From NCBI GenBank assembly GCA_963693055.1, contig OY843751.1, positions 2,784,001-2,848,000 of the forward strand: 64,000 bases of DNA, read 5' to 3'. Within the stretch, counting starts at the first letter, position 1. Each line of letters opens with the position of its first letter. This stretch comes from a bacterium (GTDB lineage: Bacteria > Zhuqueibacterota > Zhuqueibacteria > Residuimicrobiales > Krinioviventaceae). Both the position numbers and the translations under genes were made by a program. Below the pieces are notes generated by a model. That model was not told the DNA's origin and did not search any database. It saw nothing but the letters and a program-made list of their open reading frames with translations. Of this stretch, positions 2,751 to 16,023 are shown piece after piece.

Positions 2751-3244
2751 TGTGCTCGAGTCCATGATATAGAGTTTGGAGCCCAAATCAAGCTTATATT
2801 GGGGCGCTAAATTTTGTACTTGTTTAAGAAAGATATAAAATAGTTCTTCATAAATTTCAAAAGGTCGTTTATTGTTAGCGTCTGCCAGTGTGGAACGTTT
2901 CAGAGGTTTGCTGCCGAGATGATAGAACTTGTTTATTTGAGAATTTGAACTGAAAACGATATCGCGCAGTGAATGACGGCTACCGAGCTGACCGAATAAA
3001 ATATGCACAAACTGATCCCAACATGTCAATGTACGGGATCGATAATCGCCATTGTGTTTTTTTACAACTTTTTCAAATTCAAGTCGAGAAATTATGTTTA
3101 GCATTTGTCGAAAAATTGTTTTATTATATGCCATGCCCGATAACCTTTTGTTTTGTTAGATTTTGTGTGCAAACAAATATAACAATTATTTTGGTTTTTC
3201 GGGCTATTTTTGTTTATATGTATTCTTTTAACCGGACACTAATG
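2749..3244 (-). mobile_element. IS4-family transposase 5' remnant (DUF4372 N-terminus) with terminal inverted repeat
   Basis: MAYNKTIFRQML...TCWDQF..LFGQL..RHSLRDI...KRSTLADANNKRP...IMDSST, then broken; IS end CATTAGTGTCCGGTTAAAA (minus, 3226-3244). Confidence 0.8.
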
Positions 3245-5629: not shown

Positions 5630-8600
5630 TTAGTTAACCGCTGATGATGTTTTGTCCATATTGGTATTGATCAGATCTTTATCGGCATTGGTTACAATAC
5701 TGTCCATGTTAATATCGCCGTCCTGGTAGCCGTTGGCATCCATATTACTGTTGACCGGGTCCTTGTCTGCATTGGTGATCAAGGCATCGCCATTGGGATT
5801 ACCTGAATACATACCAAACACGCCTTCTTTGAGCGTGGCTGCGTTTGATTCAAGTGTGTTACCAATGTTTGATGTGAAATCATACACCCCCATAGAACTG
5901 CTGAAGGTTTGTGCACTTGCGCTTTCAATGCTCAGATGATTGCGATGTTTGACCACAATGTAATAATTGCCTTCCGCTACTTGTGATGACAAGTCAAGAA
6001 TGGTCTTGTTTGTATCATCGTCCACCAGGCAGCCGTCTTTACGTAAAAAATAAGAACGGCCGTAATCGGCAACGCCGGTTATTGTTGAGCGTAGTTCCAT
6101 CCATACCCAATCAACCACGCTGTCCGGTACACTGGTTACTGTACGGCTATCGGAATAAGGTGAAGTCGTGGGAATACTGCTTGCCAGGTTGGTGGTCATG
6201 ATCGGATCAGTAGCGTCTGCATCGTATGCGCCTTGTAATAATACTTTGACGCCGGTTACGACCATGTTATTACTGAGGTAATATTGTTTAGCCGTACCGT
6301 TATTGCCTTCTCCATAAGCGCCTGCAATAAAATCCATATGGCTGTCATTGTCAATATCGCCCAAACCGGCAGCGCTGCAACCAAAATTGTCATCCACATT
6401 GCCGGTTATGATTGCGTCGGCAACATTGTCCATACTTGCGCCGCCCAGATAAATGTACAAACGCCCTTGGTCATTCCCATATCTTGCATTGGTCGCAATC
6501 AGGTCGGCATAACCGTCACCATTCAAGTCATTTGCCCTGGAAAATACAAGTGGATTTGCATCAATCATTTCAGATTTAAAGACCAGGTCTGGGGTGTTTT
6601 CCGCGCTGTTATTGCCATAATAAAGATATGCATATGAAGTATCGCCAACGGAAACACTTAACGGGTCTCTGCTGACCATCACATCATCAAAACCATCATT
6701 ATTTACATCACCAACCATTTCAGCGTATGAACCAAAATAACATGCGTATTCTTGTCCTAGAAAGGTAACGTCTGCGGTGGTGTCAGCGGATGGTCCACCA
6801 TAGTAAATGTATACCTCCCCGGAGCTGTTATAGCCGGCCCGTTCACCGCCAATCAACAAGTCGGGATATCCGTCGTTGTTAAAATCATCACCCCCGGACA
6901 GAGAACTACCCATGCTGTCGTATGAATCTCCTATAATGGTCATATCTGCTGTATTATCAGGTACGTCTGAGCCCAAATATATGTTTACACTTCCTGTTCT
7001 GTTATCAAATTCTGGGGTCCCAATTGCATAGTCATCATAGCCGTCGTTATTAAAATCACCAAGGCCGGTTATGGTTTCGCCAAAATATTCTCCGGATGAA
7101 GGGGGTGTAAATACCTGGTCAGCTATGTTGTCCATATTGGCGCCGCCCAGGTAAAGAAAAACTTTGCCATCATAGTTTTCCGCACGATATGCTGCAACCA
7201 GAACATCATCATAGCCATCATTGTTTACATCGCCAACGCCGGCTACCGCGTAACCATAATATCCCTCTTCAGTATTTTCTGTTAATTGAACATCGGCTGT
7301 ATTGTCCATTCCCGGACCGCCGTAATAGATATAAGCAGCCCCGGCAGAGTTATAGCCGGTTGCCCCGGCAATTATATCATCATAGCCGTCACCATTCACA
7401 TCTCCTGCGTTGGCAACCGAACGGCCAAAGTTGTTTTCTGTACCTGGAATGTAACCTATTGCTCCCACTATGGTCAGGTCAATGGTTTCATTAGGCTCGC
7501 TATTGCCCAGGTAAATGTAAAATGTATTGGTATCATCTACGTTGGTAAAAACGGCAAAATCAGCACAATTATCATTGTTCATATCACCACCCGCAATTAC
7601 CCCCCCCAACCGTTCTCCAGAATTACCTTCCATGAGTAGATCATAATGGATATTCATTGTACTACCGCCTAAATAAACATAGACAATACCCTGGGTGTTG
7701 CTACCTTCTGCAGTTACTGCAATGTCATCATAGCCGTCATTGTCTATATCTCCAACGCTGCAAAGCGTTTGACTAAAATTGTCGTCTGTATTATAACCAT
7801 CTATAATAAGTGCAGGGATTGTACTAAAGGTTGAATTGCCATAATAAATATATACCCGACCGGTTGATTCATTATAACCTGTAGAACCAACAACAAAGTC
7901 ATCATAGCCGTCGTTATTTATATCTATATTACCGGCCATGGTACAACCAAATTGGTCGCCTTCATTTTCACCGACCAGGGTTTGCGCAGGCGTGCTGCTC
8001 ATGCTGGCGCCGCCCCAAAAGAGCAAAGCTTCACCTGTTTCATTGTTTGCTCTATCAGTGCCAATAAGCACATCATCATAATTATCTTTATTGACATCTC
8101 CTACACCGGCTAAACTGATGCCAAAATTATCTGACTCGTTCGCACCATCCCAGGTTTGAATTGGGGTGCTGCTCAATAAAGCACCACCGGGATAAACGCT
8201 AACCCTGCCGGTAAGGCTATTATAGGTAATTGAACCAATTAAAAAATCATCATAACCGTCATAGTTTACATCACCCGCGCTTGCAAGAGAAAGCGGGTAC
8301 CTAAAAGTTTCCATTTCTGTATCCGGATTTATTATCAGGTCCGGAGTAGAATCCATGGTGGGCCCACCAAAATAGACATGAATACGACCACTACCCTGTT
8401 CCATAGCAGCATGGACCAGCAGATCGTCATAACCATCGTTATTTAAATCTCCGGCCCTGGCTATAGTGAAACCGAAATAATCATTACTGTTTTCACCGTT
8501 CAGGGTTATATCTACGGTGGCGTTGGGCGTTGCACCACCATAAAAGATGAAAACACTACCGGTCTCATTTGCGGTGGGCGCTCCTATGACCAGGTCATCG

Positions 8601-12768: not shown

Positions 12769-13034
12769 AGTCAGAATTAGGGATATTTTGAATAGCGTGT
12801 TCAGTATTGCTCCGGAATGGTGGGATTGTCTAATTTGCTTTGTAAATTAACAATAAATGTTCAATTTTACAATAACATTTAACGGGTGGTATTTGTACGG
12901 ATAACGACATTTGATTTTTCATGCTTTTTCGCTGTTTTAATAAGGTGGTTAAGGAAGCCGCAGGTCCGCTTACTAGAGCACCGCAGGTCAGCCTCAGGCT
13001 GATCGAATCTTTTTACCCCATCCATAAACTTCAT

Positions 13035-13073
13035 AAAAAAAAAGGTCGGGAATTCAGATTCCAGACCTTTTTA
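13035..13073 (-). terminator. Probable terminator of the CRISPR transcript
   Basis: Minus strand reads AAAAAGGTCTGGAAT-ctga-ATTCCCGACC then a T-tract; lies downstream of the array in its inferred direction. Confidence 0.6.
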
Positions 13074-13291
13074 TGTTTTAACCGCCGTTTGACCCCTATT
13101 TGACCACAATCGTCTATCATATTTAAAAAAGCAGTTGACAAACGACTTAAATGCAACACAAAGCCACCAGGTTTGAATGGAGTGCCGTGTTGAGTTTTAA
13201 AATTTTCAGAATTGAGAATATCAGTAATAAAGTCAAGTATTTTATCTTTGATTAACAGGGAAGCAATTATTGATCCGCCAAAGTAGTTTAT

Positions 13292-14445
13292 ATATCCCAT
13301 CGTATTGAGTAGGTCGTTAATGGAAAACGTTAGACGAACTCGATCTTTCAAAAATGTCAAAGAGCGGGGGAGTTGTCAGTAATCGGTAATCAGTTTTCAG
13401 AACCGCCAAGAGTCCCTATTGTATTCCATGTTTTTGTAGAGCTGACAGCTATAAGCTGATAGCTAACAGCTTGAAGCCAATCCCATCGTATTGATTAGGT
13501 CGTTAATGGCAAATGTGAAACGTTAGACGAACTCAATCTTGCAAAAATGTCAAAGAGCGGGGGAGTTGTCAGTAATTGGTAATCAGTTTTCAGAACCGCC
13601 AAGGACCCTATTGTATTCCATGTTTTTGTAGAGCTGACAGCTATAAGCTGATAGCTAACAGCTTGAAGCCAATCCCATCGTATTAATTAGGTCGTTAATG
13701 GCAAATGTGAAATGTCAGACGTCAGACGATCTGTACCTTTTATCTAAATCCCGAACTTTTCATAAAGCTATCAGTTCTCAACTATCAATTGTCAGTTTTT
13801 TCGTTTCACTTTTGACGTTTCACGTCTCACTTGAAGAATGATGTCCGTTGTGTAGCGATGAATCCTCTAAATACTGACGACTGATCACTGATGACTTGGC
13901 AGCCAATCCCATCGTATTGATTAGGTCTATTTACAGTCGCATTTGACCTGGTGTGCAGATCTCTCTCTCGTTCAGCGTCTCAATCCCATCGTATTGATTA
14001 GGTCGTTAATGGCAAACGTGAAACGTTAGACGAACTCGATCTTGCAAAAATGTCAAAGAGCGGGGGAGTTGTCAGTAATCGGTAATCAGTTTTCAGAACC
14101 GCCAAGAGGCCCTATTGTATTCCATGTTTTTGTAGAGCTGACAGCTATAAGCTGATAGCTAACAGCTTGAAGCCAATCCCATCTTGGTTAATAGGTCTTT
14201 TTCAATATATCTGGTCGCTGGGCTGGTCATTGGGCTGGGCTATGGGCTGTCTCAATCCCATCGTATTGATTAGGTCGTTAATGACAAACGAGAAACGTTA
14301 GACGAACTCGATCTTGCAAAAATGTCAAAGAGCGGGGGAGTTGTCAGTAATCGGTAATCAGTTTTCAGAACCGCCAAGAGGCCCTATTGTATTCCATGTT
14401 TTTGTAGAGCTGACAGCTATAAGCTGATAGCTAACAGCTTGAAGC
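13292..14445. repeat. Five long non-coding inserts inside CRISPR repeats: type 1 at 13292-13477 (186 bp), 13478-13669 (192 bp), 13981-14173 (193 bp), 14253-14445 (193 bp); type 2 at 13670-13903 (234 bp)
   Basis: Near-identical units starting CAATCCCATCGTATTGATTAGGTCGTTAATG and ending GCTAACAGCTTGAAGC (type 2 ends GACTTGGCAGC), each followed by a new CAATCCCATC. Confidence 0.9.
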
Positions 14446-15026
14446 CAATCCCATCTTGGTTAATAGGTCTTTTTCAATGTTCAAAATATTTTTATTTCGA
14501 ATTATCTTTGTGGCTACTTCGTCTCAATCCCATCTTGGTTAATAGGTCTTTTTCAATGTTCAAAATATTTTTATTTCGAATTATCTTTGTGGCTACTTCG
14601 TCTCAATCCCATCTTGGTTAATAGGTCTTTTTCAATATTTTCAAAATTGCCAGCTGGGGTGATGCTAATGGTTATGTCTCAATCCCATCTTGGTTAATAG
14701 GTCTTTTTCAATAAAAATATTGGCATGGGCACTGAAAAAAAACACGTCCAGTCTCAATCCCATCTTGGTTAATAGGTCTTTTTCAATTCTGATACTGCAA
14801 AATGGCAGGTTTTACGTGTAGATACTTCGTCTCAATCCCATCTTGGTTAATAGGTCTTTTTCAATACGTTGAACAGCAGCAAGTCGAATTATTAAAAGAA
14901 ATATTAAAGTCTCAATCCCATCTTGGTTAATAGGTCTTTTTCAATAAATTTAGAAAATGCAAATTTAAGAAATGCAAATTTAGAAAATGGTCTCAATCCC
15001 ATCTTGGTTAATAGGTCTTTTTCAAT
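13292..15026 (-). CRISPR. CRISPR array, 37-bp repeat ATTGAAAAAGACCTATTAACCAAGATGGGATTGAGAC (minus strand), 7 intact repeats plus 3 insert-interrupted repeat positions, 9 spacers of 38-44 bp; no cas genes in the window
   Basis: Identical GTCTCAATCCCATCTTGGTTAATAGGTCTTTTTCAAT at 14521, 14600, 14676, 14751, 14829, 14909, 14990; split repeats at 14249-14478, 13977-14206 and 13292-13936; degenerate end on the left, AT-rich leader on the right. Confidence 0.95.
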
Positions 15027-15330
15027 AGACCCTGTTTTGAGGCCAATATTTTCAAGTACTTACAAGGGTGTTTTAAATAACCTCGATTTTTTGGTAATTC
15101 TAGATCCATATTTTTCTCCTTTCTGTATGTTTTCTGATGACTTAAGCATATGATTTTATTGCAATAATAACACTTTGGATAACCTATACCGCAAAATACG
15201 ACAAAATTTTCGGCACAAGAGTTGCAACGGGGCCATTTATGGTTTTATAAAATTGTTTTTGGCGCATTGTATACGCAAATTATTAATACCTTCGTTATTC
15301 AGGTCTAAAATTGTCAAAGAACGATTTTAT
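15027..15330 (-). promoter_or_regulatory. CRISPR leader with boxA-like antitermination motif
   Basis: AT-rich non-coding flank next to the homogeneous repeats; ATAACCT direct repeats about 100 bp apart; GTTCTTTGACA on the minus strand at 15312-15322. Confidence 0.65.
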
Positions 15331-15956
15331 TTATGTATTATTGTTTATCAAAAACATTGAATCATTTTTTTTAAGAATTCCCCTGGTTAGTACTGCACTG
15401 CAGCGAATTGAATTCTTGTTTTATATTATAAAGATCAGCGAATATGCCCAATATTGGTGATCTGTAGAATCCTTTTTTAAAATCATCCCCCCGGTTTCCA
15501 TTTCTCGACCTGGACACATGTTTTAGTATGAGAAAAGTATTTGTTAAACATCATATCGCCCATGCTATAATATAGTTGTATTATACTTTAATCTGATTTT
15601 TGGTGCCTTTTTTTAAGCACTTTTAAAAATAGACATAACAAAATAATACATATCATTTATATTGAAAATGCAATATACAGGAACCCACTCCATAAATAAA
15701 CCCCTTAATTCTATGAATTTTTTAATATAAAAATTAAATTATATAATCCAAACAATATATTGGTTTTTTTGTCAATATCTATTCACTCGAAAAGATGAGG
15801 GAGGGCTTGATTATTAAAATTATGGTCAGGATTGTATTTTGACCATTATTGGTCAGTGGTCAAATAGTGGTCAAACAAGGTAAAACTGCCTGGATTGTGA
15901 GAAATTTCAAAAATCTCACAAATAAAAACAATACTTTACAGTTAAAGATCATCTAT

Positions 15957-16023
15957 TTTGGGAGCAGGAGGTCGGAAGCTGAAAGACCGCCTATTGGCTG
16001 TTTCGAATCTTCTCGCCCCGACT
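15957..16023 (+). mobile_element. tRNA-Pro(TGG) 3' fragment (island boundary) carrying a 23-nt insertion in the T-arm
   Basis: TTTGGGAGCAGGAGGTCGGAAG[ctgaaagaccgcctattggctgt]TTCGAATCTTCTCGCCCCGACT; direct repeat of the 1557-1598 sequence; TGGTCA arm-site-like repeats at about 15824-15873. Confidence 0.8.

Follow-up and report, generated by a model that had tools for sequence, protein, structure and literature searches.

Heptamer-arm cassettes joined to repeat cores in type III CRISPR arrays

What are the inserts that lie between the repeat cores of this CRISPR array, and how could the array have come to hold several of them? Splitting the array in the window (the whole 64,000-nucleotide stretch of DNA analysed here) on its repeat core gave five non-coding units of 186, 192, 234, 193 and 193 bp, and the rest of the array has ordinary repeat-spacer periods of 75–81 bp. 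A preliminary description of this DNA had placed the units of 186, 192 and 234 bp at the trailer end, and had reported that the repeats at 13977 and 14249 open as GTCT-CAATCCCATC and resume as CAATCCCATC-TTGGTTAATAGGTCTTTTTCAAT beyond the insert. Both observations were borne out, with the repeats resuming at 14174 and 14446. The only open reading frame of at least 70 aa that touches the units, 13031–13360 on the minus strand, overlaps the last 69 bp of the terminal copy. The features are given below with their positions in the window; R1 and R2 are two variants of the repeat, and G000 is this genome.

13033..13071 (-): terminator-like hairpin with a U run, downstream of the last cassette; fold z -3.2; not among the features listed by the consensus scan
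13292..13477 (-): terminal type-1 cassette of 186 bp, with a degenerate core and a gap of 7 nt
13478..13669 (-): 192-bp type-1 cassette, one of the copies stacked at the trailer
13670..13903 (-): type-2 cassette with R2 core; 234 bp; four interleaved heptamer arms, in the transcript TCAG, GTGA, CTGA and TCAC; predicted tag ATTGGCTG
13904..13936 (-): R2-type repeat with tail TATTTACAG; handle replaced by the end of the type-2 cassette
13937..13976 (-): normal spacer, 40 nt
13977..14206 (-): second chimeric split repeat; junctions as at 14249..14478; flanking spacers differ
13981..14173 (-): type-1 cassette with R2 core, mid-array copy; 193 bp; 2 mismatches to the 14253 copy
14207..14248 (-): normal spacer, 42 nt, separating the two mid-array cassettes
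14249..14478 (-): chimeric split repeat composed of host GTCT, R2 core, cassette, and R1 core with tail; putative exchange point within the shared CAATCCCATC
14253..14445 (-): type-1 cassette with R2 core, mid-array copy; 193 bp; predicted Cas6 product 14449–14257, 193 nt, beginning ATTGGCTT, the cut placed by the 8-nt tag rule
14321..14333 (-): boxA-like motif GCTCTTTGACATT, putative function; also at 14061, 13558 and 13365
14340..14368 (-): CTGA-type heptamer arm, of the family that forms the arms around the PF05635 gene at G000 4596739
14409..14440 (-): self-complementary AGCT heptamer arm of type 1, in all four type-1 copies; folds on itself
14479..15026 (-): regular stretch of the array with seven intact R1 repeats; spacers 38–44 nt; one spacer tandem-duplicated
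15027..15350 (-): AT-rich putative leader; boxA-like GTTCTTTGACAAT at 15310–15322; the rRNA spacer region has an identical motif next to tRNA-Ala
15957..16023 (+): tRNA-Pro 3' fragment; likely att end of the island carrying the array

The array, its setting and the reality of the inserts

The ATTGAGAC end of the repeats, the AT-rich leader with its boxA-like motif and the terminator-like hairpin past the last unit point to transcription of the array from the minus strand. In that direction each half of an interrupted repeat folds the same stem, which ends GATGGG and is followed by ATTGGCTT in the upstream half and by ATTGAGAC in the downstream half, in line with the preliminary description. 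No cas genes adjoin the array. It belongs with type III arrays by its regular repeats, its 8-nt ATTGAGAC handle and a cognate cas6/cas10 locus: near-identical repeats at G000 2553–2566 kb surround a type III-A operon with cas6, a 789-aa GGDD ORF (the large subunit), csm2, a RAMP gene, csm4 and a CARF gene, and no cas1 was found in this locus. The genome's only Cas1 belongs to a type I locus, whose repeat is a different one, and the single reverse transcriptase (RT) of the genome, which on our reading of its sequence carries retron-like features, is far from any array; neither a CRISPR-type RT nor a Cas1 cognate to the window repeat was found in this genome.

The stretch that carries the window array holds an integrase, an IS66 gene and tRNA-Pro fragments; the island integrases are generic PF00589 matches, and the one same-genus genome searched matches the locus only from the tRNA fragment onward. 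We note that the type III-A locus (G000 2552–2582 kb) is itself an integrase-bearing island at tRNA-Met that contains phage-like genes as well as two arrays of mixed repeats, and that tRNA 3' fragments at island ends (window 15957–16023; L001 11770–11820) have short inserts in the T arm, with related CCGCC/GGCGG palindromes in the type-3 unit. A leader-proximal spacer (window 14946–14989) has a 15-nt internal repeat and resembles pentapeptide-repeat coding DNA.

We examined unitigs of three runs (X1, X2 and X3) of one sample, possibly the source of the assembly. The depth of the type-1 unit was 27.8 in X1 versus 6–11 for single-copy pieces, 13.5 versus 4–5 in X2 and 18.6 versus 4–9 in X3, a two- to four-fold excess in all three runs; the 34-bp junction of GTCT, core and unit had a depth of 22 versus 11 for the other left junction, and unitigs bridged 13655–13930, 13909–14006 and 14179–14278. 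Depths and junctions agree with the assembly and support its copy number, the copies carry private changes, and the same layout is seen in other assemblies. Although these data come from one sample and no unitig spans the whole stretch, the units are real and an artefact is extremely unlikely. An empty-site joint was not found among the unitigs of the sample, which drop rare variants. The stacked type-1 copies differ from the mid-array copies by 4–6 substitutions and a 1-nt or 7-nt gap. The 7-nt deletion that had been described as the one exact deletion besides point changes is present; it is not the sole indel, because the copy at 13478 carries the 1-nt gap.

Chimeric repeats and the composition of the units

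The inserts had been said to rebuild the repeat hairpin on both sides. Two hairpins are present, but the left one is not a fresh reconstruction: each window unit has the 24-bp core of R2 at its left end. R2 is a genuine repeat, found in ordinary repeat-spacer units at G000 2565485 and 2565565, in an array 232 kb away that also holds a related 218-bp unit between two identical 24-bp R2 cores. The split repeats at 13977 and 14249 pair an R2 core on the left with an R1 core on the right, and therefore cassette and core would come from an R2 context and have been joined within CAATCCCATC. Because the second hairpin is the R2 core of another array that holds a related unit, the R2/R1 chimera is direct sequence evidence that a cassette together with a repeat core moved between two arrays. 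Perfect homology at the left junction extends over only 10–14 bp, which is short for RecA and counts against exchange within the core. A solitary R2 repeat with a changed handle, followed by half a type-1 unit, lies upstream of cas6 (G000 2562873–2563008; L002 2874–3009), and a RhuM-family ORF ends within that repeat.

The non-repeat part of the window units is a mosaic of heptamer arms, and tandem heptamer arms are present in all of them. Arms of these families also flank the four-helix-bundle (PF05635) gene that this genome has at G000 4596739, and they recur at 28 listed heptamer tracts in the genome, three of them inside the window. A BLAST search with the units gave 86 matches; the six that reached at least 45 bp in the non-repeat part each lie beside a repeat core, and the rest were repeat-linked copies and short arm matches. 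The link to CRISPR repeats that the preliminary description had proposed to check by BLASTN thus holds for the longer matches, while short arm matches also occur elsewhere in the genome. Its reading of the insert as a repeat-associated cassette, or "CRISPR intron", likewise holds up, given these matches, the recurrence in other genomes and the retention of both Cas6 stems; it had missed the borrowed repeat and the derivation of the units from a heptamer-arm family that is spread over the genome and tied to four-helix-bundle genes.

The units are likely gene-less relatives of small heptamer-arm cassettes that elsewhere carry a four-helix-bundle gene. Since the window units have neither complementary terminal arms that form one long stem nor a PF05635 ORF in a loop, their descent is argued from the arm families and by analogy. 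Type 1 has no terminal inverted pair, the arm pairs of type 2 are complementary yet interleaved, and BLAST of the units identified no transposase-bearing partner. We set aside the idea that the units are structured RNAs, as they show no single long hairpin and fold no better than shuffled sequences (z -1.4 to 0.2). An Rfam scan of the units gave sub-threshold matches only, with no family at its cut-off and no rRNA match; the best CRISPR model, CRISPR-DR8, scored 24.6 bits against a cut-off of 39. An origin as leader fragments was also rejected, since the leader shares only the boxA-like motif, and the weak sigma-70 sites at unit ends were disregarded because a promoter scan found 15 where 11.4 are expected. 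A short frame of 10–13 codons, opened by a ATGGAATAC that is conserved in types 1 and 3, lies between two arms and may be what is left of a deleted gene.

Recurrence, junctions and predicted processing

A single repeat pattern was used to collect arrays from 167 genomes of the phylum, from a genome collection and from metagenomes (among the matches listed); the pattern was too strict for the genome collection, which yielded 19 stretches, many of them redundant. After merging, 83 arrays became 62, with 38 repeat sequences, and only arrays that had at least two exact matches to the pattern and at least two normal spacers were kept, which removed L131, L133 and L147, for example. Among the matches listed, heptamer cassettes lie between cores in 12 of the 62 arrays, 10 of the 12 outside this genome, counts that are not independent because several arrays come from one metagenome series, and many arrays are also partial. 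In seven of the 12 a cassette lies mid-array, whereas a heptamer tract occurs in 1 of 1137 normal spacers. The cassette layout is recurrent across genomes. The arms differ between lineages and the cassettes share no sequence across genomes; when the unit was compared with 101 genomes in a DNA search, the matches in 8 others were confined to short pieces of repeat or arm. Viral contigs gave three single chance-like matches and no array, and a search for the altered-handle pattern in four genomes gave one match.

Two arrays, L084 and L098, have PF05635 genes inside their cassettes, above the cut-off and both in the transcribed sense (a bAvd match in L098 is below its cut-off). Empty cassettes outside this genome fold at z <= -2 in 12 of 14 cases, so that the long-stem feature is present there. 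In 22 of 30 cassettes the arms reach to within 20 nt of both cores, which leaves little or no spacer. At 3200–5260 of L084 four cassettes are stacked at the trailer between cores, two of them empty, one with the PF05635 gene and one of 1171 bp with a 134-aa gene and an HNH gene, in an integron-like stack. A GC-rich palindromic, non-heptamer unit shows the same stacked-plus-interspersed layout at 7500–8050 of L058, and heptamer arms are therefore not required for it. At about 790–885 of L086 a CRISPR-associated RT gene holds an in-frame 29-codon empty heptamer hairpin, whose arm family brackets a PF05635 gene between the RT gene and cas1; empty cassettes therefore insert away from repeats too.

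Cas6 leaves an 8-nt tag. A window unit corresponds to exactly one cut-to-cut product of predicted Cas6 cleavage, and the normal spacer on the trailer side of a cassette keeps the ATTGAGAC tag in 15 of 15 cassettes. Cas6 is thus predicted from the junction sequences to excise the inserts and to leave the neighbouring guides working. On the side facing the cassette, 18 of 30 have an altered tag and 12 of 30 retain the full ATTGAGAC handle. The 9-nt tail of the repeat on that side departs from the commonest repeat of its array in all 30, but it is near-identical among related copies, a pattern not expected of fresh integration by Cas1. Non-host letters fall only at core positions 9–24 in the 16 left copies; in the 23 right copies 11 such letters fall at positions 1–3, and another 8, from three copies, fall at positions 11–18. 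None falls at positions 4–8, a pattern that brackets the predicted Cas6 cut at 4|5 but is also what selection would leave, because positions 4–8 form the stem that Cas6 needs. We note that trailer units in L062 (7832–7993), L080 (minus strand, 3779) and L091 (minus strand, 3770) end in a repeat whose handle is changed up to core position 4, the predicted Cas6 cut.

Could the cassettes serve the array, as Cas6-matured decoy or regulatory RNAs or as boxA reload sites that would guard the transcript from Rho? Types 1 and 3 share a conserved boxA-like motif that also matches the one of the leader and the rRNA spacer (a chance occurrence of about 0.003 per 170 nt), and the half unit stands after a solitary R2 repeat upstream of cas6. 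However, the motif occurs in 5 of 30 cassettes, all five in this genome, lineages share no cassette sequence, no Rfam family reaches its cut-off, and 50 of the 62 arrays have no heptamer cassette between repeats. Putative 32-nt guides match, at up to seven mismatches, only cassette copies and six other heptamer elements; the window spacers, compared with their own genome, gave no match beyond the 16-nt chance level. The decoy or regulatory RNA put forward in the preliminary description gained little, given tags changed in just 18 of 30 cassettes, sequences wholly different between genomes and window units that fold like shuffles, and we judge a function of either kind to be quite unlikely.

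Possible routes of spread and relation to known elements

We incline, at slightly better than even confidence, to the following account. Heptamer-arm cassettes of the intervening-sequence (IVS) type, emptied and mosaic, would have joined a 24-bp CRISPR repeat core, and cassette plus core would then have been copied into other repeats by DNA-level exchange within a short shared stretch of the core. The exchange may have occurred by slippage, by template switching or through a small circle that was excised and re-entered at CAATCCCATC; blocks of cassette and spacer are also duplicated, as in L059, where a cassette and the next spacer are copied together. In the transcript Cas6 would cut at both stems and release the cassette, which would make it tolerated, and the boxA-like motif in types 1 and 3 may help read-through. 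We favour exchange within the core because DNA-level duplication is visible in the arrays and because this genome, which has no CRISPR-type RT or cognate Cas1, holds two copies that differ at 2 nt. Normal spacers are duplicated as 2 tandem, 3 block and 5 solo pairs, the solo ones at a distance. When read by hand at a threshold of 0.8, a distant near-identical copy exists for 7 of 29 cassettes (4 of 24 outside this genome) versus 10 of 1137 normal spacers; this far higher frequency suggests that cassette spread goes beyond plain slippage, through a dedicated route or selection.

Such a route might run through RNA, with Cas6 freeing the cassette RNA from cut to cut, a CRISPR-associated RT copying it, perhaps with putative arm-binding by an Avd-like four-helix protein, and the copy entering another repeat at the Cas6 cut position. 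Avd works with an RT in diversity-generating retroelements. In favour of this route, loci of this repeat family have an RT gene adjoining a cas1-type gene (RVT_1 in L058, L062, L071 and L086, with Cas1 confirmed in L058 and L086), and the unit equals the cut-to-cut product; the letters that bracket the cut, copies that spread alone with the donor retained, and the transcribed sense of both cassette PF05635 genes would also fit it. We nevertheless consider it unlikely, as selection on the Cas6 stem yields an identical pattern of letters, three right copies have non-host letters at positions 11–18, this genome has no such RT and no cognate Cas1, and an RT also stands beside arrays without heptamer cassettes (L062, L068 and L071). 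Moreover, the PF05635 gene that separates RT from cas1 in L086 has arms on either side, as any cassette does, and the RT gene there itself contains an in-frame empty hairpin. In its fullest form, to which we give the same low credence, the cassettes would be retro-mobile CRISPR parasites that use Cas6 to excise, the CRISPR-associated RT and an Avd-like four-helix protein to copy, and the repeat as a homing site, turning type III arrays into gene-cassette platforms with passengers such as the HNH pair in L084.

Alternatively, Cas1–Cas2, with RT, may have taken up each cassette as an over-long spacer whose flanking repeats eroded later. The cassettes do occupy a spacer slot, 12 of 30 keep the full handle, the window copies are more diverged toward the trailer, and a first entry may be accounted for in this way. 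Repeated capture is disfavoured because the altered ends are identical or almost so on separate copies, here together with a foreign R2 loop, which indicates that units travel with part of the repeat; normal periods in this repeat family are only 64–92 bp, and for later copies capture is already contradicted. As an account of each cassette we regard it as very unlikely.

In the mostly open-access literature searched, we found no paper on such cassettes in CRISPR arrays. The cassettes have points of contact with several described elements. Among the closest are the ORF-bearing intervening sequences of 23S rRNA (S23p, PF05635), described for Coxiella burnetii (PMC4990558): both sit in a non-coding transcript, tandem heptamers, a terminal stem and a four-helix-bundle ORF occur in the related cassettes of L084 and L098, and removal by a host nuclease, predicted here, leaves the host RNA working. 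The window cassettes are predicted by this analogy to work like an ORF-bearing or empty intervening sequence, with Cas6 acting on duplicated repeat cores instead of RNase III. They differ in that their host is a type III CRISPR array rather than 23S rRNA; the window units also lack an ORF and a single long stem, and several copies of them share one locus.

Insertions of IS elements and MITEs in CRISPR arrays (PMC4390879, PMC10359306), described as rare in PMC4390879, are likewise short non-coding elements that interrupt an array. The cassettes, by contrast, are recurrent (12 of 62 arrays), lie flush with two repeat cores, are predicted to be harmless and have no identified transposase partner. 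With regard to the target duplication of a MITE, a 24-bp or 10-bp core is repeated here, yet the core is carried by the unit, as an R2 loop in an R1 array.

The crlRNA, CreA and CreR mini-arrays and the Racr solitary repeats (10.1101/2023.03.03.530964, where type III mini-arrays are regarded as likely degraded repeats) resemble the cassettes in having altered repeats around non-spacer sequence, predicted Cas6 maturation and, here, one solitary repeat upstream of cas6. The window inserts differ in measuring 149–197 nt between repeat-length ends rather than being spacer-sized guides, and in being multi-copy, inside an array and built of genomic heptamer arms; no promoter target was found for 32-nt guides at up to seven mismatches. 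Acquisition of RNA spacers by RT-Cas1 (10.1101/2023.09.01.555893) has an echo in the RT beside cas1 in this repeat family, which could convert RNA to array DNA, but as far as the accessible text extends that system inserts at the first repeat, from templates or protospacers no longer than about 50 nt, and cut-to-cut units entering internal repeats are not described. A boxA in CRISPR leaders is described in 10.64898/2026.07.09.737519.

These observations bear on how CRISPR arrays are read, since array finders will split cassette-bearing arrays or call the units spacers. Arrays can accept inserts of 110–1200 bp, genes included, while keeping both Cas6 stems and the tag of the next guide. For a large and unexplained family of heptamer-arm four-helix-bundle cassettes, the arrays supply a defined target site and an order in time, which makes their movement testable in a plasmid-borne array.
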